A DNA stretch of 64,000 nucleotides from an uncultured Gammaproteobacteria bacterium (lineage in GTDB: Bacteria > Patescibacteriota > Microgenomatia > UBA8517 > UBA10165). The notes under the pieces were generated by a model. That model did no database searches. It had not been told where the DNA came from and worked only from the letters and a program-made list of their open reading frames with translations. Both the position numbers and the translations under genes were made by a program. The DNA lies in the NCBI GenBank assembly GCA_964472675.1, contig CAYYLO010000001.1:21704-85703 (forward strand), in the 5' to 3' direction. Each line of letters opens with the position of its first letter. The first letter of the stretch is position 1. Shown here one piece after another: positions 4,179 through 54,464 of the stretch.

Positions 4179-5297
4179 TCAAGAGCTAACTTTTAGAATT
4201 AACCTTTTACTTAAACTTAACGATTTTTCCCAAGAAAAATTATTGCTCCACTCAACGGCTCCTTTTGAAAGCATCTTATCCAGAGCTTGATTTGTCAATA
4301 TCTTAAATGTATTCTCCGCGAGCTCTTGGGGAAAGTTCTCCTTGCACAAAATACCACTTTGACCGTCTCTCACAGAATCTACAAGGCCGGCAGTTTTGTA
4401 GGCGACTACAGGCGTTCCCATCCTGTTAGCCTCAATATTAACAAGTCCCCATCCTTCTCGAACTGAAGGATTAATCAGGACATGGGAGCGAGCAAGAAAA
4501 TTAAATTTTTCCTTTTCGCTTACAAAACCAAAAAATTTTATGTTTTTTTCAACTTTTAAGGATGCAGCTAACATTTTTAAATATGCAACGTACTTCGGAG
4601 CTCCACTTCCTAATACCCAAAACCGGAATCTTCCCTTCCTATTTAATAGAGCAAAAGCCTTAATGGCATCCTCAATTCCCTTGTCGCGTGCCAGAGCTCC
4701 CAAAAAAGTAACAGTTTTTATTCTCTCCTTCTGTGGCAATTTTGTTGAGGCATTAATTATCACCCCGTGTGGAATTACTGTAATATTATTCGCAGGTATA
4801 CCCATCTTCACAAGATCATACTTAGCAGATCGGGAGCCAGTCATGAATGGTATTCGTTTATAAAACCAAAAAAACACAGGCTCTGTTAGGTAACCAAACC
4901 AACCCACAATCCAGTTAAAGGGTTTAGGGAGATGGTTAAGAAGCCAAACTTCTCTTGCCACTTCCTGTAAAACGGCAAGCTTTGGTACATGTATGTAAAG
5001 CGGAGTGAAGAACGGCAATCCGTGAAACTGGTCAACCACTAAGTTATATCTTGGGTGGTCACCGAATAAATACCAAAAGAAAGCCATGATTTGAACCCCC
5101 AGAAGCTGATAACCTTTCCTTACAATTTTTACACCATCTACATATTCTTCCTTTGAACTGCTGGAGAACGCTGAAGAAAACAGAGTTACATTATGCCCTG
5201 CTTGTATCCATCCCTTTATATGCTCGTGCATCACCTGCTCTGCCCCACCAGACATAGGATGTCTTGGATCACGCCATGATAGTACTAATATGTTCAT
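4179..5297 (-). CDS. GT4-family glycosyltransferase
   Basis: MNILVLSWRDPRHPMSGGAEQ N-terminus and C-terminal INPSVREGWGLVNIEANRMGTPVVAYKTAGLVDSV (the E-x7-E GT4 region). Confidence 0.85.
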   Translation of the reverse strand: MNILVLSWRDPRHPMSGGAEQVMHEHIKGWIQAGHNVTLFSSAFSSSSKEEYVDGVKIVRKGYQLLGVQIMAFFWYLFGDHPRYNLVVDQFHGLPFFTPLYIHVPKLAVLQEVAREVWLLNHLPKPFNWIVGWFGYLTEPVFFWFYKRIPFMTGSRSAKYDLVKMGIPANNITVIPHGVIINASTKLPQKERIKTVTFLGALARDKGIEDAIKAFALLNRKGRFRFWVLGSGAPKYVAYLKMLAASLKVEKNIKFFGFVSEKEKFNFLARSHVLINPSVREGWGLVNIEANRMGTPVVAYKTAGLVDSVRDGQSGILCKENFPQELAENTFKILTNQALDKMLSKGAVEWSNNFSWEKSLSLSKRLILKVSS

Positions 5298-12146: not shown

Positions 12147-13820
12147 TTACTTCCAGGAAAGTAGTTCAAAAGCCACACTGTCGTCCGGTCTAGTTATTTC
12201 CTTGTAAATTCCATCCGGTTGTTTTTGGGAAAGTTCGGCAAAAGGAGGATGTTCAGGATCAAAAACTATCAACGTGCCTTTATTGTGTAAGTCCCCTGCG
12301 GTGGCATCCCTAAAGGTAATATTATCTAGCCCGGAAACCAACCCTACATCACCAAATTGCCCTTCCTGGTAGGTTTTTTTGGAAACTTGCTGATATTTTG
12401 CTGGATCATATTTTTGGAAAAAGAGGAAGAAAATGTACGGCTGGTTATAACTTTGTTGAAAAACAATCTGCTTGTAATCATTTTGTTCTTTAGAAGTCTT
12501 CATAATTGTTTGTTTATACCCGTATTGCCAACCTTTAGCACTGCGCAAAGGATAATGTACCCAATATTGATCAAGAAAATACACGTAATTAATTGCGTAA
12601 ATAGCAAGGTAACAAAGCAGCAAGATTGCAAATTTGCGGCCACGAATTGCTTCAAATACAAATGCCACTCCGCATCCACTAAGTAAAGTTAGTGGAATGA
12701 CAAGATTCAGACTTCGCACACCTTGTATAGTATCTCGAGATAAAGCAGCAGGCAGCGGAGCCAGCAAAAGCCAGAGAAGTACAAACCACTTTGCATTTCT
12801 GTTTTGACTTCTTGCCAAATATAATAATCCTAAAATCAGCAACGGCAAGTCCGCCAATAACAAAACGCCAACGTCAGGCGCTCCGTGTCTAGCATTGGCC
12901 CAATCTCCTTCGAAGAACAAGAATCTTGCCGAGTAGTAATTCGTCCACCGGTACAAAACCCCTCGTAAATTGTTCAATGGCTCAGAATGGTAGAGGATAT
13001 ATTGCCAAGAATTTATACCAACTCCTTCCTGGTTTAAAATGCCAGCCACATATTCAACAGGCCTTCTATAGGAAAAAAAACTAAAGACTGCTAACCTTCC
13101 TGCTTGTCCTTGAAAAACGCTTAAGATTATTGGCAATACCAACACAAACCCCAGAATTAAAACTTGTGCTATCTGTTTTCTGGTAAATCTGCCAAGTCGT
13201 TTGCGATACGCCAACAAGAGAGCTGCCACAACCAACGCAGTACTCAATTTGGCCCCCTGATATGTCCAAAGAGTGAGTGCAAAGAAAATAACTGACAGGT
13301 AAATACTTCTGCCCCCGTCTTTAACAAACCGCAAAAATAAATAGATTCCTGCTAAAGTTAACGTCAAAGAAAGATTGGCTTCCCATGCACCTCTGGAAAA
13401 ATGAACATGCCAAGGAGATATTGCAAGCATCAAGCTTGCTAAAATTTTCAATTTTTCGTTCTTGAATAATTCGCCTACTGAACAATAAACAAGTCCTACA
13501 GCGGCAATACCTGCAATAGCACTGGGAAGTCGCACGGACCACTCTGCCAAGCCCAATATAGCTACGAATGGTACTGTTAGGTAGACATAAAGTCCCGGTT
13601 TCCAATCTCCGAATGACTTAAAAATCAGTGGCAGAAGTTCGCCATACTCATCTCTGCCTGTCTTCAAAATTGAATATGCGTTATACCCCAAAGCCGCCTC
13701 GTCACTGGTTAAATGTGGCGGATTAATATCCAGTTGCCAAAAACGCAACAAGGCAGCAACCAACAAGATTGTGACGAGTAACAGGTGATGAGTTATTGGT
13801 GTAACGAGTTTTCTAATCAT
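12147..13820 (-). CDS. PMT/GT39-family glycosyltransferase (GT-C)
   Basis: LTSDEAALGYNAYSILKTGRDEYGELLPLIFKSFGDWKPGLYVY. ATGA start/stop overlap with the upstream gene at 13817-13820. Confidence 0.85.
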   Translation of the reverse strand: MIRKLVTPITHHLLLVTILLVAALLRFWQLDINPPHLTSDEAALGYNAYSILKTGRDEYGELLPLIFKSFGDWKPGLYVYLTVPFVAILGLAEWSVRLPSAIAGIAAVGLVYCSVGELFKNEKLKILASLMLAISPWHVHFSRGAWEANLSLTLTLAGIYLFLRFVKDGGRSIYLSVIFFALTLWTYQGAKLSTALVVAALLLAYRKRLGRFTRKQIAQVLILGFVLVLPIILSVFQGQAGRLAVFSFFSYRRPVEYVAGILNQEGVGINSWQYILYHSEPLNNLRGVLYRWTNYYSARFLFFEGDWANARHGAPDVGVLLLADLPLLILGLLYLARSQNRNAKWFVLLWLLLAPLPAALSRDTIQGVRSLNLVIPLTLLSGCGVAFVFEAIRGRKFAILLLCYLAIYAINYVYFLDQYWVHYPLRSAKGWQYGYKQTIMKTSKEQNDYKQIVFQQSYNQPYIFFLFFQKYDPAKYQQVSKKTYQEGQFGDVGLVSGLDNITFRDATAGDLHNKGTLIVFDPEHPPFAELSQKQPDGIYKEITRPDDSVAFELLSWK

Positions 13821-16800
13821 TGCTTCTCAAGAATGATAAAAGCCGGATCTCCATTCAAGAAGCGGATAGTTTTCAGTTGCTTAAAATCGGGAGGAAAATT
13901 CCCTGGACTGGTGACGAGAAGAGTTTTACCATCTATCGGTATTTTTAGCCCACTCTCCACCCGCCACTCTCCACCCGCCACTTTTGGCATATCCCAATCG
14001 TTAACAAAATAGAACTTATCAAACCGGTCTATCCAAAACCAATCAGACTGGGCAAACCGCACAAGGTTGGTGTCTTTTTGGTAAGCGGCTGGATCCCAGG
14101 GCCAGTAGAAAAGCAAAAACTCATGCGGTTCGCCATATTTTTTAGTAATAATAAATCGGTCATATTCTCCATAACAAGCTTTTATGTAATCCGCGATATT
14201 TTGATATCCATATTGCCAAGACCAAGAGTAGTTTCTGCTGTAAACAAAGAAGTATTCATACATGTACTTACCCATATTGACAAATAACAATGTGGCGTAA
14301 GCTGTTAATGCGAATGCTTTCCACCTGCGGCTAATTTTTGTTGCTAGCCATATTACCCCAATTGCCGAAATAAGTTGAGGAATAGGCAACATAGAAGCAG
14401 AACGCAAAACTGCAAATTTTTCGTTAGTAATACTTGCAGGAATCGGTGCCAAGAGCAACCACAACAAAACTAACTGATACGCCTTCTCTTTTTTAGTCGC
14501 CCTCCATGCAACCAGTATCAGGCCAATGTAGAAAAAGGGTAAGTTAACCGGATAAAGGAGTCCCCAACCCGGAACGCTAAATTGATATTGCGTACCGCCT
14601 TTAAAAAATAAAAACTGCGGTGAAAAGTAATCCGCATAGTTTTTGGTAAACTTCTCAACAAAGTAAACAGGACGATTGTAGAAAAGACGAGCTAACCCTG
14701 GAGGTAATTTACTTTCCTCGCGCGCATTCACAATGCGGTTTATTGCACCCTGGTCAACCAAAAAAACCCAATTGGCACGTGCCCTTGCCTCAGAATTAGA
14801 CAAGATAAACGGAAGCGGCACAAAAAAAACAGCTAAAATGACAAGGGAAATGATCCCAAGTAAACGTTTGTGTTTGAAAAAATTAAAAAGTTCACGCCGG
14901 TAGATTATAAAAAGGGCAAGCAAAAAAAATGGAGTGAAGATTCTGGTTGTGTGGTAAGAAAAAAGAGTTAGCCCAAAAGCCAAAAACGAAAGCGGAAATT
15001 TGCCATTTACAAAAAGAGCAGCCGCTGTAGTTAAGAAAAACACCGATAAATTTGATTGTAAAACAAACCGCGAAGGGAAAAAGAGCCATGGGTCAATTGC
15101 CACAAAAAATGTGCCAAACAGACTTATGTCTTTCCTTTTAGTAACTCCAAAAAAAACAAAGTAGGATGAAATTATCGTTAAAGTTCCCAAGAGAACATGC
15201 GGCAAGCGGATGGCAAACGCATTAAGACCAAGAAACTTGATAAAAGGTATGGTCAAATAGAGGTTGAGAGGAAGGGGGTAGTCTCCATAGGCTCTAAAAT
15301 TTGTGATCGGAAAGAATTCCCCCCACTCGTCCTGGCCGGTTTTTAAAATAGAGTAAGCATTCCATCCATGACTTACTTCATCCCAGTTTAGACTTGGCGG
15401 TATTTGAGTAATCCCTGCAAACCTTAAAACAAACCCCAACAAGACAATAACTATTAATAACCAATATTTCTTATACACAGTTGAAGAGATCTTTGATCTT
15501 TTATGCCACATATTTTTCTTTACGAAAAACAATAATCCGATCGCTGCCGCAACACTAATAGCATTACCCCAAGTTCTTGCTGGAGTATCAGTAAATCTTA
15601 ATATTGCTTCTTTTTCACCGCTCAGAGCGGGAAGTTGTGCTGTTATTAATCCCAAATCTCCCGAAGGAACAACCGAGTACTCTTTTGATTCTGTAAACAA
15701 ATGCCAACCAGGAAAATAAACTATCGGAAACTGAACTGTGGCAGGTGAAGTAAGTGTTAACTTGTATTTTACCTCATTGCTCTTCTTTAAGACTTGTGCA
15801 CCAAAAAACCTGCCGTCTGCCGAAGGTTGCGAAGGAGCCGGACTTGCCGGAAGTTGGGAAGCTGTTGCAGGCCAATAATCTCCTAAAGATGACGCGGTCT
15901 GTTCTTCCCATTTTTTCCCTGCAAACTGGTCTTTATCTGTAATGTTGTACCACATATCCTCCTTAAAAAAAGAAAAGTTCACAAGGATCACGATGACAAT
16001 AGCAGTTGCACTAATCCACAGAGGAAATCGCCTGGAAACGAACACTATAGCTCCAGAAGCCAGCGCAAAACTGAAGGTTGCGATAGAAAGCCAACGCCAC
16101 GGAAATTGAAAATATGACGTAAATTTGAGGCTTTCCCAAATAGGTGTCGACTTATTGTGTGTTAGAAACAAAGCCAGCCAACCAATTAAAACTAACACCA
16201 AAATGTCTTTAAGTTTTTCTTTTTGGCGAGTTATTAACAGGCATACCAGTGCTATCAAAGGCAATACCCACTGCACTTGCCCCACAGATAAACTTAAATC
16301 ATCTTGAGGACCAAAAAGTGAAGCGCCATACCCCCAAAATCTTGAAATTAAAAGTTGGTTCAATGTGGCAAAATGTGCCCTAAAATCAAAATAACCAATG
16401 GTGATCGATTCCAAGTTTACATATTTGGACTCCGACACCACAGGTAGTAGATAAAATGCACTAAGTGCTAACGCCAAAACCCCTCCACCAACTAGCCAAG
16501 GAATCTTACTGTAGTTTTTCCTTTCCACAATTTTACATCCCAACCATACTCCCAAGAAAAGCCCAAACATTAGAAGCGACAGGTTGTGTGTCAGCAACAG
16601 CAGAGCAAGGCTGACACTAAACCACAAAAGACTTTTGATCTTGCCCCCATGAAGAAAGTTATAAGCAAAGAGCGCAATAAAAGGGAAAAGTGCAAAAGCA
16701 AAAGCTTCGGGCAAAGCTGCCCGAACCCAAACATCAAGAGCTCGATATGGCGCGTATACATAAACCATGCTGCTCACCAATGCCGCATATTTATACGAAG

Positions 16801-17173
16801 TTGAAGAGGAATTCTGATTCTTCTGATTTCCCCAAACCCTTAAAGAGAGCAAATACATACCTAAAGCAGATCCAATAATCGAGAGAATAAACACTACCTT
16901 GGTGGAATCAATAATTTGCATTCCCAGCAAGTGGAATACTTCGCCTACTGCGTAAGGTATTTGCGTGTAAAAGTTAAACAAAGGTTCACCATACCCAAAA
17001 CCAGCGTCGGGAGCCCAGCGACAAGGGATTTGGAAGTCCTTTATACAGCGATCAAACTCAAACAAACGGAATAAATGCGGGTCCTGCATGGAATATATCC
17101 CTGGCCGGAGCATCCTAAAAAAAGCGGGGATTGTGAGAACAACAACAAACAACAAAAAGAAATATTTTCTCAT
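13817..17173 (-). CDS. Fusion protein: N-terminal YfhO-like/PTPS-related GT-C module (about aa 1-554) plus C-terminal PMT/GT39 module (about aa 555-1118)
   Basis: N-half is colinear with the stand-alone 52578..54464 protein (DFQIPCRW...PLFNFY...; C-terminal FPGWHLF ~ FPGWKVF). C-half from MWHKRSK (ATG at 15511) carries LNWDEVSHGWNAYSILKTGQDEWGEFFPI and the full PMT architecture. One uninterrupted 3357-nt ORF. Confidence 0.8.
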   Translation of the reverse strand: MRKYFFLLFVVVLTIPAFFRMLRPGIYSMQDPHLFRLFEFDRCIKDFQIPCRWAPDAGFGYGEPLFNFYTQIPYAVGEVFHLLGMQIIDSTKVVFILSIIGSALGMYLLSLRVWGNQKNQNSSSTSYKYAALVSSMVYVYAPYRALDVWVRAALPEAFAFALFPFIALFAYNFLHGGKIKSLLWFSVSLALLLLTHNLSLLMFGLFLGVWLGCKIVERKNYSKIPWLVGGGVLALALSAFYLLPVVSESKYVNLESITIGYFDFRAHFATLNQLLISRFWGYGASLFGPQDDLSLSVGQVQWVLPLIALVCLLITRQKEKLKDILVLVLIGWLALFLTHNKSTPIWESLKFTSYFQFPWRWLSIATFSFALASGAIVFVSRRFPLWISATAIVIVILVNFSFFKEDMWYNITDKDQFAGKKWEEQTASSLGDYWPATASQLPASPAPSQPSADGRFFGAQVLKKSNEVKYKLTLTSPATVQFPIVYFPGWHLFTESKEYSVVPSGDLGLITAQLPALSGEKEAILRFTDTPARTWGNAISVAAAIGLLFFVKKNMWHKRSKISSTVYKKYWLLIVIVLLGFVLRFAGITQIPPSLNWDEVSHGWNAYSILKTGQDEWGEFFPITNFRAYGDYPLPLNLYLTIPFIKFLGLNAFAIRLPHVLLGTLTIISSYFVFFGVTKRKDISLFGTFFVAIDPWLFFPSRFVLQSNLSVFFLTTAAALFVNGKFPLSFLAFGLTLFSYHTTRIFTPFFLLALFIIYRRELFNFFKHKRLLGIISLVILAVFFVPLPFILSNSEARARANWVFLVDQGAINRIVNAREESKLPPGLARLFYNRPVYFVEKFTKNYADYFSPQFLFFKGGTQYQFSVPGWGLLYPVNLPFFYIGLILVAWRATKKEKAYQLVLLWLLLAPIPASITNEKFAVLRSASMLPIPQLISAIGVIWLATKISRRWKAFALTAYATLLFVNMGKYMYEYFFVYSRNYSWSWQYGYQNIADYIKACYGEYDRFIITKKYGEPHEFLLFYWPWDPAAYQKDTNLVRFAQSDWFWIDRFDKFYFVNDWDMPKVAGGEWRVESGLKIPIDGKTLLVTSPGNFPPDFKQLKTIRFLNGDPAFIILEKQ
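13937..13980. repeat. Tandem 14-mer (cactctccacccgc x2 plus a partial unit) within the PMT-module coding sequence
   Basis: ccactctccacccgccactctccacccgccact; encodes AGGEWRVESG. Confidence 0.6.
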
Positions 17174-18843: not shown

Positions 18844-20106
18844 TTAATTGTAGCCCTTTTTACGTTTAATCCCAAGCAATAGAACACTAAACACCAAGAG
18901 ATTTACAACAGCTATAAAATTAGGCAGCCATGAAACTTTGTAAATAATTTCCAGTGGTGCAAAAGACGCGGCATTGAACAAGTGATAAATATTCAAAAGA
19001 TTTGAAACAGATAAAACTGCAACAGCCAAAGTTGTCAGCGGAACCAGGCCGGATAGTAATGTGGCTATCGGGAAAAATGGATAAAGGTATCTTTCGTGAA
19101 TTCTGGTCATAAACAAGAATGTAACTAATGCAGACAGAGCCAGGCCATAGAGAACATTTCTGTTTGATAAATTGTGTTTCAACCACAAACATAATCCGCC
19201 TATTACAACTGAGGAAACCAAAAAGCCCAATAATCTTGCGCTTGTTGAAAAATAAATTGTGCTATCTAAAGTTTTACCATTATCAATCAACCACCAAAAG
19301 TTAAATGCGTTTGCACTCAAAGAGCCTATTTCGCCTGACAAGATTCTGTTCTTGTATAAGTTTAAAAACCATATCGGAAAATCAACCTGGGGATGAAACC
19401 AAATTGAAATAAAGATTGTGGTTAAAACCGCGGCTAAAATGCTTTTTAACCACTGGCTACGATTAAATTTTTTAGTCAGCGCAACTACAAGCAGTATGGG
19501 AATAAAAATTGCCAACGACCCTTTAAAGAGTAAAGAAAGTATAAATAAAAATGAGAAGACTGTTAATTGACTACTCAAAAGTGCCACTATTGCACTTAGT
19601 CCTAAAAGATTAACTATACTATCTGTCTGACCCCAAATACTTGAGTTAAACCACACAACGGGATTCAAAACCCAAAATGTAGACATTAACAGCGCAGTTT
19701 TTGGCTTCTTCAACCTAATGAAGTATTGATATAAAACAGTCGCTATTCCCAAATCTGCAAAAATACTTGGAAGTTTTATCAACAACTTAAGTCCGCGGTC
19801 TTCCCAAAACCAAACAAAGGCCGAAGGAAAAGCGGGGATATGGTTGTTAAACCACCAAGCGAGTCGCTCGACTGTATTCCATATAATTTGTAAGCCAGCA
19901 AAAAGCAAAATGGTTAAAGGAGGTTGGTTTGGGGCAGAGTATGGCCAATTTTTGAGGTCATAAAAACCACTTAGTCCATGAGAAACAGCAATTTGCCCCC
20001 ACGAAATGTTGTTGTTCAAATCGCCATGATACGCGCTAAAAACAAAATAAAGCCGGAGAATTAAGCCCGTTAAAAGCAGAAAATAGAATTTATGTAAAAA
20101 CTTCAC
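18844..20106 (-). CDS. Integral membrane GT-C-like protein (DUF2029/GT87-like), family uncertain
   Basis: 420 aa, about 11 TM helices, loop motifs YHGDLNNNISWG and SSIWGQTDSIVN. GTG start overlapping the upstream stop (GTGA). Confidence 0.4.
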   Translation of the reverse strand: MKFLHKFYFLLLTGLILRLYFVFSAYHGDLNNNISWGQIAVSHGLSGFYDLKNWPYSAPNQPPLTILLFAGLQIIWNTVERLAWWFNNHIPAFPSAFVWFWEDRGLKLLIKLPSIFADLGIATVLYQYFIRLKKPKTALLMSTFWVLNPVVWFNSSIWGQTDSIVNLLGLSAIVALLSSQLTVFSFLFILSLLFKGSLAIFIPILLVVALTKKFNRSQWLKSILAAVLTTIFISIWFHPQVDFPIWFLNLYKNRILSGEIGSLSANAFNFWWLIDNGKTLDSTIYFSTSARLLGFLVSSVVIGGLCLWLKHNLSNRNVLYGLALSALVTFLFMTRIHERYLYPFFPIATLLSGLVPLTTLAVAVLSVSNLLNIYHLFNAASFAPLEIIYKVSWLPNFIAVVNLLVFSVLLLGIKRKKGYN

Positions 20107-33975: not shown

Positions 33976-34356
33976 TTAAATATTCCTTTTCCCTTTAAGC
34001 GTGAGAACACTAGAACCAAAGGTATTGGAAATTTCTGCAAGCTCTTTCAAAAACCAATTGGCTTCTTCAATATCGCATTTGCCTGCGTCTTTTAGGACAG
34101 AAAGCCACACCTTGCTTTCGTTAGCAGATTTAAGGCACCTCTCGAAGTAAACTATTAATTCCCGTTTGGAGCTTGAAGCCAACCCTTCAATATAATTGGA
34201 TAAGATGCTTGTTCCACTGCGAGTAAGCTGGTCAGCAATTATGCGACACACTACATCTTTCATATTAAGCGTGCCAAGGAACTTAATGAGCCTGAGGATA
34301 AATTTATACAATCTTTCTTTAAATTCTTTTTGTCTTTTTACTTTGTCTATTTGCAT
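33976..34356 (-). CDS. Four-helix-bundle protein (TIGR02436; 23S rRNA intervening-sequence protein family)
   Basis: SGTSILSNYIEGLASSSKRELIVYFERCLKSANESKVWLSVL matches the family hallmark ANESKYWL region. About 126 aa from the ATG immediately after the upstream stop; track ORF extends to 34404. Confidence 0.8.
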   Translation of the reverse strand: MQIDKVKRQKEFKERLYKFILRLIKFLGTLNMKDVVCRIIADQLTRSGTSILSNYIEGLASSSKRELIVYFERCLKSANESKVWLSVLKDAGKCDIEEANWFLKELAEISNTFGSSVLTLKGKRNI

Positions 34357-34357
34357 T

Positions 34358-35233
34358 TTAATTTTTGATATTTGAGTTTCTTTGAAGCTCATAGAGCTTC
34401 GCATAAGTTACAAACCTGCTCCACATTTGATAAACGCCATACAAAATCCCTTCCGTGCCATCCAAAATACCACCCATAACGACCAAACGGTACCACAACT
34501 CTTGTGACATGATTCTTGCAAATCTCCACCACGCCATTGGAGGGTGATTGGCCTTAAAAAGAAGTTTTGCCTCAAAAACTGAATACCTGTTTGTTTTTTC
34601 TATCATGTCCGAAAGAGAATCTTCTTTGTGGTGAATTAGCGCGTTTGTAAGTGTTCCTACTTCCCCATTAATAACCGGTTGTTCATGGAGCTCGCCTTCC
34701 CAGCAAACAAGCGCCTCTTTTTTCATCAGCCGCAAAACATAGTCCGGCCAAAACCCACCATGCTTTAACCACCTTCCAAACACGTGATTTTTGCGGGGTA
34801 TCTTATAAGCGTACAAGGAACTATCAAGTGCACGGGTGGCGGGAGCGGAGGGAGTCCCACCGAGTGACCGCAGGGAGCCTGCGACCGAGGACGTCGGGTG
34901 GGACGAGCTCCCGACAGGACCCGAAGCAGGTGGTTTGACAGAACCTACAATATACTGAATTTCTTTAGCTAACTCTTGGGTCACTTCCTCGTCATAATCA
35001 ATATAAAACAACCAGTCGCCCTGAGCATGTTTTGCCGCTTCGCCGCGCCATACTGCAAAGTTGTTTCCTTTGCTGTTAACAATTTTTGCCCCGTATGTTT
35101 TGGCGATTTTTATTGTGTCGTCCATTGAGCCGGTATCTAAAATCACTATTTCGTCGGCTAGCTTTTTAACAGAGTCTAAACACTGTTCTATTTTGCTTTG
35201 GGCATTTTTGGTAATAACAAGAACGGATAACAT
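34358..35233 (-). CDS. GT2-family glycosyltransferase carrying an in-frame GC-rich low-complexity insertion
   Basis: MLSVLVITKNAQ...ILDTGSMDDT...IDYDEE GT-A core; paralog of 36156..37115 (shared SVKKLADEI). Contains a ~38-aa Ser/Gly/Pro-rich insert (PASGPVGSSSHPTSSVAGSLRSLGGTPSAPA) absent from the paralog. Confidence 0.8.
   Translation of the reverse strand: MLSVLVITKNAQSKIEQCLDSVKKLADEIVILDTGSMDDTIKIAKTYGAKIVNSKGNNFAVWRGEAAKHAQGDWLFYIDYDEEVTQELAKEIQYIVGSVKPPASGPVGSSSHPTSSVAGSLRSLGGTPSAPATRALDSSLYAYKIPRKNHVFGRWLKHGGFWPDYVLRLMKKEALVCWEGELHEQPVINGEVGTLTNALIHHKEDSLSDMIEKTNRYSVFEAKLLFKANHPPMAWWRFARIMSQELWYRLVVMGGILDGTEGILYGVYQMWSRFVTYAKLYELQRNSNIKN
34831..34933. repeat. GC-rich (~70% GC) imperfect-palindromic element, copy A, inserted in-frame in a GT2 gene
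   Basis: About 80% identical to 53829-53952. Arms gggagtcccac (34850-34860) and gtgggacgagctccc (34898-34912) are inverted complements; it encodes the extra peptide that is absent from the paralog. Confidence 0.75.
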
Positions 35234-36155: not shown

Positions 36156-37115
36156 TCATCGCGAGCCGGAAGAGCAGCGATCTCTCAAGATAAGCTTTCT
36201 TAGAAACCTTTGTGACAAGCCATATTTTCGGATCCCAGACTGCTGCATCCAATAATCCATCTCATATTCAGCCTTTGCAAAAGCTTGATCAAGTTCAGTT
36301 TTTCCTAAGCCCTCGTTTTTAAATCCCTGCACCTCCCAGACTTTAATAACTACAACCATTTCAGAAAGAGCCTGCAAAAGCGCTAAAGCTAACCCGTGTA
36401 CTCCATCTTTGTACCCTTCACCCGCGAAGAAGCGACTCAAAAACTCCCCCATGGGTTTTTGTATTAAATCAATCCAGGAAAATTTGTACCCTTTTTTTGC
36501 CAAATCTTTTGCCTGAACTTCTGTATAGCGAAGCATACGTGTTAAATAATCAGAAACGCCACTGTAGTTGTAATGGATTATTGCCAGCTTTTCCTCGGGC
36601 GGGATATCTGCTCCCTCTCCTTCTGTTTGTGGAACTGAATGAATTGTGTCCAACCAGACGACTGCACCCTTTTTGAAAAACCTTATATTGTAGTCCGGCC
36701 ACCAGCGGGAATGCTGAAGCCATTTGTCAAAAACGATATTTTTCCGTGGCAACCTGTAAAAATCAGCGAGGTCTCGCCTTAGAGGCATCTCCCTAAGTTC
36801 CCGGGAAAGAGCTAAGGGAACCTCTTCGTCGGCATCTAAGATTAAAATCCAGTCACCGGTAGCCTTACTAATAGCAAAGTTGCGCGCGGGTTCAACGTAT
36901 CCAGTGGGTTTGTGTGTGTAAACTTTAGCCCCCGTCTTCTTGGCAATCTCACGTGTTTTATCCGTCGATTCCATGTCGACAACAATAATTTCGTCGGCTA
37001 GCTTTTTAACAGAGTTTAATGTTCGAGGTAAATTCTTCTCTTCGTTTAAAGTGTTGATAACAACGGAAATCTTTGCCACGCTTAAATTGTACACGAACTG
37101 CGAGAGCCGTGTCAT
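36156..37115 (-). CDS. GT2-family glycosyltransferase
   Basis: ISVVINTLNEEKNL ... VVDMESTDKT ... ILDADEE; paralog of 34358..35233 without the insert. Confidence 0.85.
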   Translation of the reverse strand: MTRLSQFVYNLSVAKISVVINTLNEEKNLPRTLNSVKKLADEIIVVDMESTDKTREIAKKTGAKVYTHKPTGYVEPARNFAISKATGDWILILDADEEVPLALSRELREMPLRRDLADFYRLPRKNIVFDKWLQHSRWWPDYNIRFFKKGAVVWLDTIHSVPQTEGEGADIPPEEKLAIIHYNYSGVSDYLTRMLRYTEVQAKDLAKKGYKFSWIDLIQKPMGEFLSRFFAGEGYKDGVHGLALALLQALSEMVVVIKVWEVQGFKNEGLGKTELDQAFAKAEYEMDYWMQQSGIRKYGLSQRFLRKLILRDRCSSGSR

Positions 37116-45105: not shown

Positions 45106-45548
45106 AGAAAATCTCCTGCCTCTCCGCCGCCAATTTCCAATATGTATCGTAGACTTCTTCCCTTACCTTCATACTAAGTTAGAGTACCACACATAAGAAT
45201 CAGCCTCTCAATAGAGTAAAATTACGAAGTTACTTTTATGCCTACAACACACAGGGCGGAGCATGCATGCATTTTTATGATGGATAAAAATTATCAACAA
45301 GAAAATGGGCAAGATTTGGGACATTTGCAACAAAAAATACTTCACTCGAAGCAATCCGCTTGAACTATCCACTTAAGGAAGTGCGAACTTCGCACGTCTC
45401 ATTAAGCGAACTGCTGTAAGTGAAGTATCCGGTCCTGCCCCTACCCAAACGTATGCTTGGAACGCGCGCCGGACGGCGACAATTCGGAAACGGAATCTTT
45501 GTGTTTATATTATACCTCACATAGCAACATGTCACAATATACCAACAC
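45106..45548. promoter_or_regulatory. Long (~440 nt) non-coding region upstream of the AbrB-like/R-M module
   Basis: No convincing ORF (the minus-strand 45365..45799 ORF lacks any motif). Contains hairpin gtgcgaacttcgcac and -10-like TATATTATAC / TACAAT-like hexamers near 45500-45545. Confidence 0.3.
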
Positions 45549-49083: not shown

Positions 49084-49962
49084 GTGTACTATGGAATTAT
49101 GGTGCATTTTCCAAAAAATAACCAAACTATTTGGGTTTCGCATTCTTCGATCTCTGATTTTTTGAAGTGTCCGCGGTCATATTACCTTCGCAACGTTTTA
49201 AAAAGCAAAGCTACCAACCGCAAGATGACAATAATGACTCCACCTCTTGCTTTAGGACAGGCCGTTCACGACACTCTAGAATCTTTGTCACTTCTTCCCA
49301 AAGACGAAAGATTCAAAACGCCCCTGATGGATAAATTTGAGGATGCATGGGGAAAAGTTACCGGCAAAAAAGGCGGATTTAAAAATGCCGCCGAAGAAGA
49401 GGAATACAAAGAACGGGGCAGAAAGATGATTTTGAGAGTTTTGGAAAGCCCGGGAATTCTTCTTAATAAAGCCGTCCGCATTAAGCCCCGAAGCGAAAAA
49501 GATCGTCTTTCAAATTTCGATCTTCCTTATTACAAAATCTCCGAAGAAGACAACATCACACTTTGTGGCAAAATTGACTGGCTTGAATATTTGGAAGAGG
49601 AAAACACAGTTCACATTGTCGACTTCAAAACAGGTAAAAATGAAGAGGATCAGGCATCACTTCAGTTGCCTATTTATTATCTTCTGGCAAAAAATTGCCA
49701 AAGCTTTAATATCTCGCGCGCAAGCTACTGGTACATAGACCGGGAAAGCAAACCAAAACAAGTTTCACTCCCGAGCGAAAAAGAGGCAAAAGAGAAAGTT
49801 TTAGAGATTGCTCACAGAATTAAACTTGCACGGCAACTTCAACTTTTTAAATGTGCCAGAAACGGCTGCTTTTCCTGCCTTCCCTACGAGGCAGTTTTGC
49901 GAGGCAGCGGAGAATGTGTGGGTGTCAGTCAAACAAATCAGGATATATACATTTTACTCTAG
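49084..49962 (+). CDS. PD-(D/E)XK nuclease-superfamily protein with a Cas4/AddB-like 4-Cys Fe-S cluster
   Basis: N-terminal Cys (FLKCPRSYY) plus a C-terminal CARNGCFSC cluster as in Cas4/AddB/Dna2 nuclease domains; RecB-motif IVDFKTGK (D-x-K). Confidence 0.65.
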   Translation: MYYGIMVHFPKNNQTIWVSHSSISDFLKCPRSYYLRNVLKSKATNRKMTIMTPPLALGQAVHDTLESLSLLPKDERFKTPLMDKFEDAWGKVTGKKGGFKNAAEEEEYKERGRKMILRVLESPGILLNKAVRIKPRSEKDRLSNFDLPYYKISEEDNITLCGKIDWLEYLEEENTVHIVDFKTGKNEEDQASLQLPIYYLLAKNCQSFNISRASYWYIDRESKPKQVSLPSEKEAKEKVLEIAHRIKLARQLQLFKCARNGCFSCLPYEAVLRGSGECVGVSQTNQDIYILL

Positions 49963-52577: not shown

Positions 52578-54464
52578 TCACATGAAGCGGGTCTTGATAG
52601 TTTTACTAGTTTCTTTTGTTCTTGTTTTGCTAGGACTTTTCGTGGCACGGAAAGGCACAAACGTCACAAGAATTGGGGTAGCAGCAAGCCCTACCCAAGA
52701 AATAAGCGAAATTACATTGCCTACGGTTCTAGCCTCTGTGTTATAAAGACGAGCTGCAACTTCGTGTTCTCCCTTAGACAAGTCAACATGCATCCGCCCC
52801 CACTCGTCCTGGTTTAACAACACAGAGACTTCCTTGCCATCCACAAAAACTTTCCAGCCTGGGAACTTGAAAATGTTTATGCGCACAACGCCATTATCCT
52901 CATCTTGAGCTACTTTGAATTTTGCCCAGTTGGAGCCTTGAGAAGCATCACTAATTTGCCCCTTACCTGAAACTGCCTCGGCAACAGTTTTTTGCGGCGC
53001 TTTGGGAGCAGCTGAAGCATCTTTTGGCAAATAATCGTATATTCCGGCAGTTTGTTGCAAATCCCAGGCAGCACCTGAGAATTTTTCCTGGTCAGTTAAG
53101 GGGCCCATTTTTTCAGGTTTAAAAAACTGCCAGTTCCAACCAATAACCACCGCAATCAAGACAAAAACTACCCACTTGGCTATTTTGGGATACGTCTTGG
53201 TCAATAAAACTGTACTTGTCCCAGCCACAACAGAGAAGGAAAGCACGGCCAAAGTCAGGAAACGCCAGGGAAACTGTACAAAAAGCAGGGGAGGTATTTG
53301 TTGCCAGATAAACGTCGACTTAACATGAGCCATAAAAGTCGCAAACCAACCCGACAAAAAGAAAAACATGGTCACCAGGACCAGTTCATTGTTGATTTTC
53401 CGACGCTTCAGCAACTTCCATCCCAAAAATAAAACTACGACAATTGCCAATATCCAATGAATTTGCCCGACGGGGAAAGCCATCTTGTCATCTGCGTCTG
53501 CCCAGGCGGAGGGGCCATATCCCCAAAAGCGGCTGGTTAAAAGCTGGCGAATATTGGCAAAATGGGCAACATACTCGTAGTAACCTTGTGTTAAAGTCTC
53601 TACATGTACAAGTTTCTGTTCCAAAAAAACCGGCAAAGTAAAAAATGCGCTCAGCCCAAAAGCCCAGGCACCGCTTATTGCCAAATTGGGGACAGACCTC
53701 CAAGCTTTGTATTTTAATATCCAAATTAAAAGCCAGGCTAAAAAGAGGGGAGTGAAAATTAAAACCATAAGATTGTGCGACGTAAGCAACGCGAACCAGG
53801 CTAAGGCCAGAACCAAAAGCCATCTTGACGGGTGGCGTGGGCGGAGGGAGTCCCACTGAGCCCCCGCAGTCTCGCCAAAGGCGGACGAGGAGGTCGAGTG
53901 GGACGAGCCCGCGACAGGACCCGTCATCCCCGTGGCAGGACCCGAAGCAGGCATAGAACTCTTTATTAATCTGTAACCAGACCACAAAATTAGCGGGAAC
54001 CAAACTAGCGACCAGGCCTCATTCATCGCCCCACGCACATAAATATCAACAGAATGATACGGTGCCCAAATATAAAAAGCGGCAGACAAAAGACCGCCAA
54101 GACGCCCAAAGAATTCACGGGCAAAAATATACATGGTTACACCGCTTATTAAGAAAGACAGAAGAAACGTCAGCTTTACAGTCGTTACAAATGAAAATTG
54201 AAAAAGCCTGAATACCTCCCCCACTAAATAGGGGAGAGGCGGATAAAAATTAAAAAGAGGAAAACCGTAACCGTACCCCATATATTGCGTCCAACGGCAG
54301 GGAATTTGAAAGTCAGCAAAACACTTCTCCATCGCCAGTTGCCTCATCATCTGGAGATCATCATGCATTAAAAAATAGCCGGGGCGCAGAAGCCACCAGC
54401 CAGCCAAAAGTCCAAGCCCAAGCACAAGATAAAAATAAGGATCACTACGGCGCAGAAGGTTCAT
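52578..54464 (-). CDS. YfhO-like/PTPS-related GT-C membrane protein carrying an in-frame GC-rich insertion
   Basis: Colinear with the N-half of the 13817..17173 fusion protein (FADFQIPCRW, PLFNFYPPLPY) and with the YfhO C-terminal beta-sandwich (FKFPGWKVFVDG...GEHEVAARLY). Contains a ~45-aa SGPT-rich insert (MPASGPATGMTGPVAGSSHSTSSSAFGETAGAQWDSLRPRHPSRW). Confidence 0.65.
   Translation of the reverse strand: MNLLRRSDPYFYLVLGLGLLAGWWLLRPGYFLMHDDLQMMRQLAMEKCFADFQIPCRWTQYMGYGYGFPLFNFYPPLPYLVGEVFRLFQFSFVTTVKLTFLLSFLISGVTMYIFAREFFGRLGGLLSAAFYIWAPYHSVDIYVRGAMNEAWSLVWFPLILWSGYRLIKSSMPASGPATGMTGPVAGSSHSTSSSAFGETAGAQWDSLRPRHPSRWLLVLALAWFALLTSHNLMVLIFTPLFLAWLLIWILKYKAWRSVPNLAISGAWAFGLSAFFTLPVFLEQKLVHVETLTQGYYEYVAHFANIRQLLTSRFWGYGPSAWADADDKMAFPVGQIHWILAIVVVLFLGWKLLKRRKINNELVLVTMFFFLSGWFATFMAHVKSTFIWQQIPPLLFVQFPWRFLTLAVLSFSVVAGTSTVLLTKTYPKIAKWVVFVLIAVVIGWNWQFFKPEKMGPLTDQEKFSGAAWDLQQTAGIYDYLPKDASAAPKAPQKTVAEAVSGKGQISDASQGSNWAKFKVAQDEDNGVVRINIFKFPGWKVFVDGKEVSVLLNQDEWGRMHVDLSKGEHEVAARLYNTEARTVGNVISLISWVGLAATPILVTFVPFRATKSPSKTRTKETSKTIKTRFM
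53829..53952. repeat. GC-rich imperfect-palindromic element, copy B, inserted in-frame in a YfhO-like GT-C gene
   Basis: Arms gggagtcccac (53846-53856) and gtgggacgagccc (53898-53910); same orientation as copy A; the peptide it encodes is absent from the paralogous module in 13817..17173. Confidence 0.75.

Follow-up and report, generated by a model that had tools for sequence, protein, structure and literature searches.

A GC-rich hairpin repeat in frame within unrelated Patescibacteria genes, with behaviour like that of Rickettsia protein-coding palindromes

Introduction

How does the same GC-rich, hairpin-forming DNA come to sit in frame inside genes that are otherwise unrelated? The question is raised by contig CAYYLO010000001.1 (assembly GCA_964472675.1, positions 21,704 to 85,703; hereafter the window, that is, the whole 64-kb stretch of DNA analysed) of an uncultured bacterium placed by GTDB in the Patescibacteriota, where an initial annotation, made from the letters alone, pointed to two such segments. 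We propose, with moderate confidence, that these are copies of a low-copy, non-autonomous family of hairpin-forming elements (imperfect palindromes) in Microgenomates-type Patescibacteria, and that the family behaves like the protein-coding palindromes of Rickettsia. The element is ~95-130 nt long with ~70% GC, and its stems are parted by invariant asymmetric loops. It is a new, unusually conserved element family of Patescibacteria and matches no known family by sequence, the Rickettsia palindromic elements (RPEs) being set apart by description. Full-text literature searches returned no description of it for Patescibacteria, in keeping with the initial remark that nothing of the kind is known to have been described for genomes like those of the Candidate Phyla Radiation (CPR).

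Results

Two homologous copies in unrelated genes

Relative to a window mean of 41% GC (standard deviation 6.7%), only two islands exceed 70% GC at 80-nt resolution, 34804-34953 and 53784-53967, and they peak at 74-75%; apart from them, the one large GC-rich stretch is the pyrF/pyrE region at the 3' end, at 58% GC. They contain two homologous segments of 71-72% GC, copies A and B, which align in the same orientation at 78% mean column identity and lie in frame within intact minus-strand open reading frames (ORFs). The copies and their host genes are listed below.

34829..34945, plus strand: copy A, 117 nt, 39 codons, GSVK...ATRA, 72% GC
34829-34933, plus strand: covariance-model core of copy A (model R1, 114.9 bits, E 5e-25)
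34358..35233, minus strand: host gene A, family-2 glycosyltransferase (GT2), 291 amino acids (aa); PF00535, E 1e-16
53826..53957, plus strand: copy B, 132 nt, 44 codons, SMPASGP...RHPS
53826-53926, plus strand: hairpin core of copy B
53927-53951, plus strand: partial tandem duplication of the 3'-end motif of copy B, GGCAGGACCCGAAGCAGG (direct repeat D1)
52578..54464, minus strand: host gene B, GT-C-like polytopic membrane protein, 628 aa

The limits of copy A were set by codon alignment with the empty-site GT2 ortholog of locus L012, and those of copy B by alignment with empty-site orthologs. Much of the initial annotation is borne out here: it had described two GC-rich homologous segments in one orientation, inserted in frame into unrelated genes and missing from the paralogs 36156..37115 and 13817..17173, both of which are indeed empty. 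It had also placed the segments correctly, with extents that are now refined to 34829-34945 and 53826-53957. Its YfhO-like assignment of host B fits the orthologs, which match the PTPS_related/YfhO families (PF10131/PF09586) more strongly than host B itself, whose Pfam matches are sub-threshold.

Copy B scores 108.6 bits with the second covariance model, R2, and 107.6 bits with R1. Beyond copies A and B, self-BLAST and the scoring of both models at every position found no other copy in the 64 kb, and R2 revealed no degenerate additional copies in the window. Relative to copy A, copy B has part of its 3' end duplicated (21 nt) and a 4-nt indel at the apex, with the result that its second half is translated in another frame (GGTPSAPATR in host A, WDSLRPRHPS in host B). 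It follows from this frame shift that DNA, not peptide, is common to the two genes. Partial tandem duplication of the 3'-end motif GACAGGACCCG(AAGCAGG) is seen at 34914-34955 and 53908-53951 and also in L008, L015 and L017; it could stem from slippage or be a trace of the insertion mechanism.

Copies at other loci

The expectation of further copies was correct: we count 13 distinct copies, in ORFs and between genes, from at least eight independent Patescibacteria assemblies and six unrelated loci. Ten of the 13 lie in intact ORFs (GT2 loop, GT-C loop and a linker of arginyl-tRNA synthetase, ArgRS) and three are intergenic. Copies outside the window are as follows.

L001 (Patescibacteria metagenome-assembled genome, MAG), 4391-4497: first copy, intergenic, flanked by genes for an HlyD-like protein and an ABC ATPase
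L001, 6476-6611: second copy, intergenic and diverged, just downstream of an ABC permease gene; found by R1
L002 (Candidatus Blackburnbacteria RIFCSPHIGHO2_01_FULL_43_15b): intergenic, murC-murB spacer
L008: in an ORF, ArgRS linker; the full-length protein carries the annotation Blackburnbacteria ArgRS
L009, L010/L011 and L018/L019: GT2-loop copies in three lineages; found by R1
L013, L014/L015, L016 and L017: GT-C-loop copies in four lineages; found by R1

Covariance scores of the 13 copies range from 54 to 117 bits, save for one degenerate copy at 26 bits. Despite their unrelated host genes and different assemblies, copy A and the L008 ArgRS copy differ at just 2 of 82 core positions. The ArgRS host was recovered by a concatenated six-frame peptide query (5.8 billion proteins, 8000 candidates scored), for which the sole other match was the window's own GT2. 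An alignment to E. coli ArgRS (4oby), which has no such insert, places it between the catalytic domain and the one that binds the anticodon. The second L001 copy carries extra hairpins inserted at two positions. The two L001 copies, in direct orientation, bracket the ABC ATPase and permease gene pair, an arrangement that could be coincidence or composite and cassette-like.

A strict two-block pattern, run over 185,579 species-representative genomes (GTDB), found one copy in each of two genomes and a third match due to chance; in JGI metagenomes it found one true locus, which duplicates L002, and three further matches that arose by chance. No copy was found in viral contigs (strict pattern) or in phages and plasmids (BLAST), and in all scans the element was confined to Patescibacteria loci. 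Strict discovery patterns undercount diverged copies, and the sample is biased towards conserved ones; the DNA covered comprises 64 kb of the source genome and 4-22 kb pieces of other genomes. Synteny with these loci, together with the names of their sources, assigns the window to Candidatus Blackburnbacteria.

A shared fold with a strand preference

All copies fold into one rod-like hairpin of nested stems. The initial annotation had quoted a single pair of inverted arms; the palindrome stands, with three nested stems in place of that pair. In the window the parts are:

34833-34837/34919-34923, plus strand: copy A stem P1, CGGGT/ACCCG (RNA and DNA folds, covariation)
34840-34846/34907-34913, plus strand: copy A stem P2, CGGGAGC/GCTCCCG (RNA and DNA folds, covariation)
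34854-34861/34897-34904, plus strand: copy A stem P3, GTCCCACC/GGTGGGAC, plus an inner extension
34847-34853 (GGAGGGA) and 34914-34919 (ACAGGA), plus strand: copy A conserved asymmetric loop
53826-53833/53919-53926, plus strand: copy B stem P1
53836-53842/53907-53913, plus strand: copy B stem P2, CGTGGGC/GCCCGCG, T.G wobble included
53850-53857/53897-53904, plus strand: copy B stem P3

Across the family, the rod begins with P1 (CGGGU/ACCCG), the outer pairs of which covary, and continues with the 7-bp P2, which is hypervariable yet paired, an asymmetric loop (GGAGGGA opposite GA), the 8-bp P3 and a variable apical hairpin. A 5-bp extension of P3 was recovered independently by RNAalifold. Standard pairs make up 97.2% of cells in 11 copies, and both sides have changed in 10 of the 26 pairs; slid alignments are 29-44% paired, and none of 500 shuffles reaches the observed values. 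The folds are significant both as DNA and as RNA (z -2.7 to -3.9), which answers the initial suggestion that the arms be folded, and they have support from covariation.

The two strands are not equivalent. One G.U pair is invariant (11/11 copies), seven more wobbles are all G.U on the plus strand, and no A.C pairs occur in P2 or P3 of the 11 copies; tandem G.A pairs are present in two. The minimum free energy (MFE) is lower on the plus strand than on the minus strand in all 13 copies, and in nine of the ten ORF copies this folded strand is antisense to the host gene. A promoter scan found no promoter-like plus-strand site upstream of either window copy. Searches of Rfam 15 gave no relevant match, either in a gathering scan of the window or in a permissive scan of the L001 copy (noise at most 15 bits; E<=10).

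Several known structures with some resemblance to the element were considered and dropped, with Rfam as the test applied. Hammerhead- and twister-type ribozymes, signal recognition particle (SRP) RNA and RNase P P4-like motifs had no model match or disagreed in length or motif, and the same was true of guanidine-III-like motifs, integron attC sites, diversity-generating retroelement (DGR) hairpins and bulge-helix-bulge introns.

The inserted peptide

All ten ORF copies have lengths divisible by three (~93 to ~132 nt) and contain no stop codon. In the nine antisense ORF copies, translation of the first half uses a single frame, rich in Ser, Gly, Pro and Thr (GPxxSSxPTSS), perhaps through selection for a harmless peptide. 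Two frames are used for the second half across hosts, and in L013 the opposite strand is translated. A comparison of the insert peptide with 1.84 billion cluster representatives found no family; there was one weak low-complexity match, uninformative for finding copies.

In host A the insert corresponds to residues ~98-136, between a helix (86-98) and a strand (140-151). The AlphaFold2 model of this protein, a prediction built on a shallow alignment, has a mean predicted local distance difference test (pLDDT) score of 83.5, and only residues 100-134 fall below 50; they lack secondary structure. In host B the insert occupies residues ~170-213, a loop just before the hydrophobic segment RWLLVLALAWF. 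Since the ORF copies are in frame and stop-free, and since the AlphaFold2 loop is disordered, the insert is most simply seen as translated by read-through into a predicted disordered loop at the surface. If read-through translation occurs, insert-spanning peptides such as PASGPVGSSSHPTSS are expected.

Filled and empty sites

Most orthologs are empty, as a presence/absence polymorphism of the kind initially postulated would have it. The GT2 loop lacks a long insert in 116 of the 120 closest homologs, including the nearest (74-76% identity), and nearly all of these homologs are 250-260 aa long. The GT-C loop lacks one in 115 of 121 homologs; the six filled proteins split into two separate clades of a neighbor-joining tree, which is a rough one. 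Decayed remnants are found in L010, P0177 and P0033. A rule by which filled GT2 and filled GT-C genes occur together in each genome was considered and is broken by L018, where the GT2 is filled and the GT-C empty.

The most informative comparison is between two GT-C alleles of 96-97% DNA identity, P0148 (filled, L017) and P0163 (empty, L018), from a species in which the GT2 loop is filled. Here, ~42 nt of the empty allele are swapped for ~160 nt that comprise the element and diverged coding flanks of ~25 nt and ~15 nt. This pattern looks like homologous replacement with co-converted flanks, not simple insertion. In the GT-C loop of L013, the element belongs to another subtype, whose nearest match is the intergenic copy of L002, and is inverted, still in frame (peptide GGGSPTERPQ...RTSGGTS.QDP).

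Conservation and mosaic copies

Orthologous, apparently vertically inherited copies were compared with the 4-fold degenerate sites of their host genes in three pairs. Identity is 0.90 in the element core and 0.63 at 4-fold sites for window copy B and L015, 0.96 and 0.73 for L016 and L017, and 0.85 and 0.33 (saturated) for window copy B and L017. Some copies are mosaic: L009 and L017 have an identical apical hairpin and differing P3 stems, and L017 and L018 share a rare P3 variant. The conservation could come from frequent gene conversion among copies or from selection on the folded plus strand.

Discussion

Origin and spread of the element

We propose that new loci would be colonised rarely, by way of a trans-acting enzyme that recognises the folded plus strand. 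A single-strand (HUH-type) transposase would be the most natural candidate, given that neither target-site duplications nor a terminal-repeat or transposase signature is seen. Spread within a gene, among related genomes, would then proceed mainly through homologous recombination of the coding sequence around the element, resident copies would exchange segments with other copies (concerted evolution), and host selection would retain in-frame insertions in permissive loops only. The occurrence of other, unrelated in-frame GC-rich hairpins in this lineage suggests that it is generally permissive to such insertions. The initial claim that the element spreads into ORFs is therefore kept for the many ORF copies, with the amendment that spread at orthologous sites is partly homologous replacement.

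Several observations weigh against a mobile, Rickettsia-like palindrome. The sole recent filled/empty pair resembles homologous replacement, and no transposition event has been caught cleanly. Filled/empty comparisons show no target-site duplication, and there are no terminal inverted repeats, the outer ends being weakly complementary. No transposase was found in the 64-kb window or in the loci read, nor any insertion sequence (IS) in the 64 kb and ~200 kb of loci. Copy number is low, at 2 per 64 kb with none extra in ~150 kb of flanking loci; likewise, the strict pattern yields one copy per genome in two species representatives and one true match in JGI. Compensatory change, for its part, can be mimicked in DNA palindromes by hairpin-templated mutation. 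Finally, resident copies evolve far more slowly than 4-fold sites and their internal loops are invariant, which is unexpected for dead selfish copies unless gene conversion is frequent. The view of the element as purely selfish, put forward at the outset, is doubtful on the same grounds: invariant loops, slower change than at 4-fold sites and a selected fold that is antisense to host mRNA.

These last features are what a functional structured nucleic acid would be expected to display, be it an antisense or cis RNA, a ribozyme- or protein-binding scaffold or a site in single-strand DNA, held by purifying selection at each locus, its place in coding loops being incidental and mobility secondary or ancient. 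We regard this as the main rival, possible if improbable. It is favoured by the covariation of stems around asymmetric loops that do not vary (GGAGGGA opposite GA; G opposite ACAGGA), the confinement of wobbles to G.U on the plus strand, the lower plus-strand MFE in 13/13 copies, an element core far more conserved than host 4-fold sites in orthologous pairs and, as in functional RNAs, the placing of variable-length hairpins at peripheral positions (second L001 copy, L016). However, nine of the ten ORF copies would need antisense transcription, and no promoter-like plus-strand site precedes the window copies; genomic context varies, as does orientation to neighbouring genes (antisense except in L001 and L013, where it is sense); the element is missing from the same loci in most close relatives, and degenerate copies exist; Rfam has no match even at E<=10; and concerted evolution can explain the conservation. 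A bolder form, a strand-specific structured nucleic acid, antisense to its hosts and under purifying selection, that would be a new non-coding RNA or ribozyme-like module or else a substrate of mobility or homing, is one that we entertain tentatively and consider unlikely. In the last variant, an undescribed single-strand DNA mobility or homing system of Patescibacteria would spread with co-conversion of flanks and could fill one protein loop in either orientation.

Explanations at the level of protein or RNA processing fare worse. An ancient, vertically inherited Ser/Gly/Pro/Thr-rich linker, selected as protein for glycosylation or flexibility and common to enzymes of surface glycosylation, would account for the composition of the peptides and for the shared N-terminal frame of the nine antisense ORF copies. 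It is already largely refuted and we consider it very improbable, given a C-terminal half in two frames, one ortholog that translates the opposite strand, three intergenic copies, mostly empty orthologs, conservation at the nucleotide level with base-pair covariation, and no peptide family among the 1.84 billion cluster representatives. The glycosylation linker envisaged initially has some of the same evidence against it (the differing frames and the reverse-strand ortholog), and also the cytoplasmic ArgRS host. Equally slight are the chances of an intervening sequence removed from RNA or protein (mini-intron, bulge-helix-bulge intron, bypass element or mini-intein) or of a known RNA family. 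A GC-rich structured insert within AT-rich coding DNA does suggest one, and introns are known from rRNA and tRNA genes of Patescibacteria (PMC13011429). An excised or bypassed element would nevertheless be free of frame constraint, and for this reason the 10/10 in-frame, stop-free copies (chance ~(1/3)^n, with n at least 4 independent events) count against it; furthermore, both orientations are in frame, Rfam offers no match, and inteins and group I or group II introns are all far longer than the insert. An artefact of assembly or binning, with chimeric GC-rich reads, has the compositional contrast in its favour and nothing else. Different studies, using different assemblers, show the same codons filled in independent assemblies (NCBI MAGs, ENA, JGI, Logan), substitutions are compensatory and lineage-specific, and the ORFs are intact; the recurrence of the element at the same gene positions in independent assemblies excludes an artefact for practical purposes.

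Other in-frame hairpins and neighbouring genes

Other, unrelated GC-rich hairpin repeats, of the GTCATTCCCGCG... type, are also in frame in housekeeping genes of this lineage. They lie at L008 338-402 and at residues 53-92 and 641-676 of ArgRS P0003, within an ATP synthase gamma gene and twice in ArgRS, are absent from E. coli ArgRS, and encode peptides such as VIPAQA...GSHFRGNDK and SSPRRRG...DSGSEPEMT. GT-C alleles of L017 and L018 that are 96-97% identical differ by a clean in-frame indel of 39 nt (L017 3353-3391; peptide SDPPAASERSSGG), palindromic and GC-rich, with 2-nt AG microhomology and no flank divergence; it belongs to a second, smaller hairpin family with recent gain or loss. In-frame insertions of GC-rich DNA have a hot spot in the GT2 loop: that of L016 holds a ~190-nt composite GC-rich insert (19079-19277) missed by both models, and those of GT2 homologs P0127 and P0113 carry peptides of other hairpin families.

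Positions 1-62000 of the window are nearly one minus-strand glycosylation cluster with many ~550-aa ORFs, GT2, GT4 and a Polysacc_synt flippase. Several of the ~550-aa ORFs are PMT_2/GT-C-like, as judged by Pfam on syntenic loci and the few window ORFs scanned. Other features of the window are listed below.

33976-34404, minus strand: PF05635 '23S rRNA-intervening sequence protein', 142 aa, four-helix-bundle, Avd-like; overlaps the 3' end of the GT2 host
45427-45497, minus strand: DUF3800-IX RNA (RF02968), 41 bits; the sole Rfam gathering-level match in the window
49084..49962: PD-(D/E)XK Cas4-like nuclease gene; synteny kept in L013-L015
62944-64000: pyrF (PF00215, orotidine monophosphate (OMP) decarboxylase) and the first part of pyrE, a phosphoribosyltransferase gene, ~58% GC against 41%

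A small gene at the same place in the empty-site locus L012 indicates that the PF05635 gene is not linked to the insert. A GC island similar to the DUF3800-IX RNA adjoins DUF3800 genes in L013 (19746-19799). The GC-rich pyrF pair is also syntenic in L013 and L015, and this points to horizontal acquisition of the pair long ago.

Significance

To our knowledge, protein-coding palindromes have so far been essentially a Rickettsia curiosity. An unrelated family with like behaviour in a second reduced, host-dependent lineage suggests that in-frame colonisation by hairpins is a recurrent outcome of this lifestyle. In-frame hairpins are also a source of protein length variation, here including an aminoacyl-tRNA synthetase. 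The family offers clean material, with covariation, strand asymmetry, filled and empty sites in near-identical strains and opposite orientations at one site, and this makes its movement and any role in the host testable with existing groundwater metagenomes and metatranscriptomes. In practical terms, such inserts inflate and distort CPR gene calls and alignments.

Comparison with known systems

Repetitive extragenic palindromic (REP) sequences and their paired forms (REPINs) are extragenic by definition, usually number tens to hundreds of copies, bear GTAG/CGTC-type tags and are linked to the gene of a REP-associated tyrosine transposase (RAYT). The Patescibacteria element resembles REPINs, which are non-autonomous, ~100-nt imperfect inverted-repeat doublets that form long single-strand hairpins, leave no target-site duplications and evolve as within-genome populations. 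It departs from them in that ten of 13 copies lie inside ORFs, in low copy number in the DNA covered and without the tags; among the Pfam-annotated genes of the loci read (64 kb and pieces of other genomes) there was no RAYT (Y1 HUH transposase).

The mobile GC clusters or 'byp' elements of yeast mitochondria are likewise short, palindromic and GC-rich, and insert into protein-coding genes of AT-rich genomes. The ribosome skips byps, and frame is not required. Here, in contrast, all ORF copies are open and in frame, a point in favour of read-through translation, and the hosts are bacteria rather than eukaryotic organelles.

[quoted passage not shown] Neither was found in the present element, the whole length of which is conserved and structured. 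It shares with intragenic MITEs the formation of in-frame host fusions by a small non-autonomous repeat, examples of which are QMITE1/2 of Coxiella burnetii, intragenic copies of the enterobacterial repetitive intergenic consensus (ERIC) and Anabaena MITEs (PMC10969869; PMC5896051).

The closest behavioural likeness is to RPEs, palindromes that span ~100-150 nt, are found in frame within unrelated genes as well as between genes, encode no transposase and contribute a peptide that the host fold can accommodate (Ogata et al. 2000, 2002, summarised in PMC10969869). R. conorii is reported to have 44 copies (PMC10969869), compared with 2 per 64 kb here. The Patescibacteria element belongs to another phylum and is GC-rich in an AT-rich genome, and sequence homology to RPE families is very unlikely, a judgement made without direct comparison to RPE sequences. 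RPEs have been characterised by a conserved peptide that they encode; here, the frame varies, the fold is conserved and the strand asymmetry is clear. One loop is occupied in both orientations, and there is evidence of spread by homologous replacement. Of the initial comparison with RPEs, then, the behaviour is upheld and membership in an RPE family is not, as no single conserved peptide unites the copies. What the two share is a palindromic unit that encodes no transposase, lies both between genes and in frame within unrelated, even essential, genes, adds a peptide compatible with the host fold (here by predicted structures only) and inhabits reduced, host-dependent bacteria.

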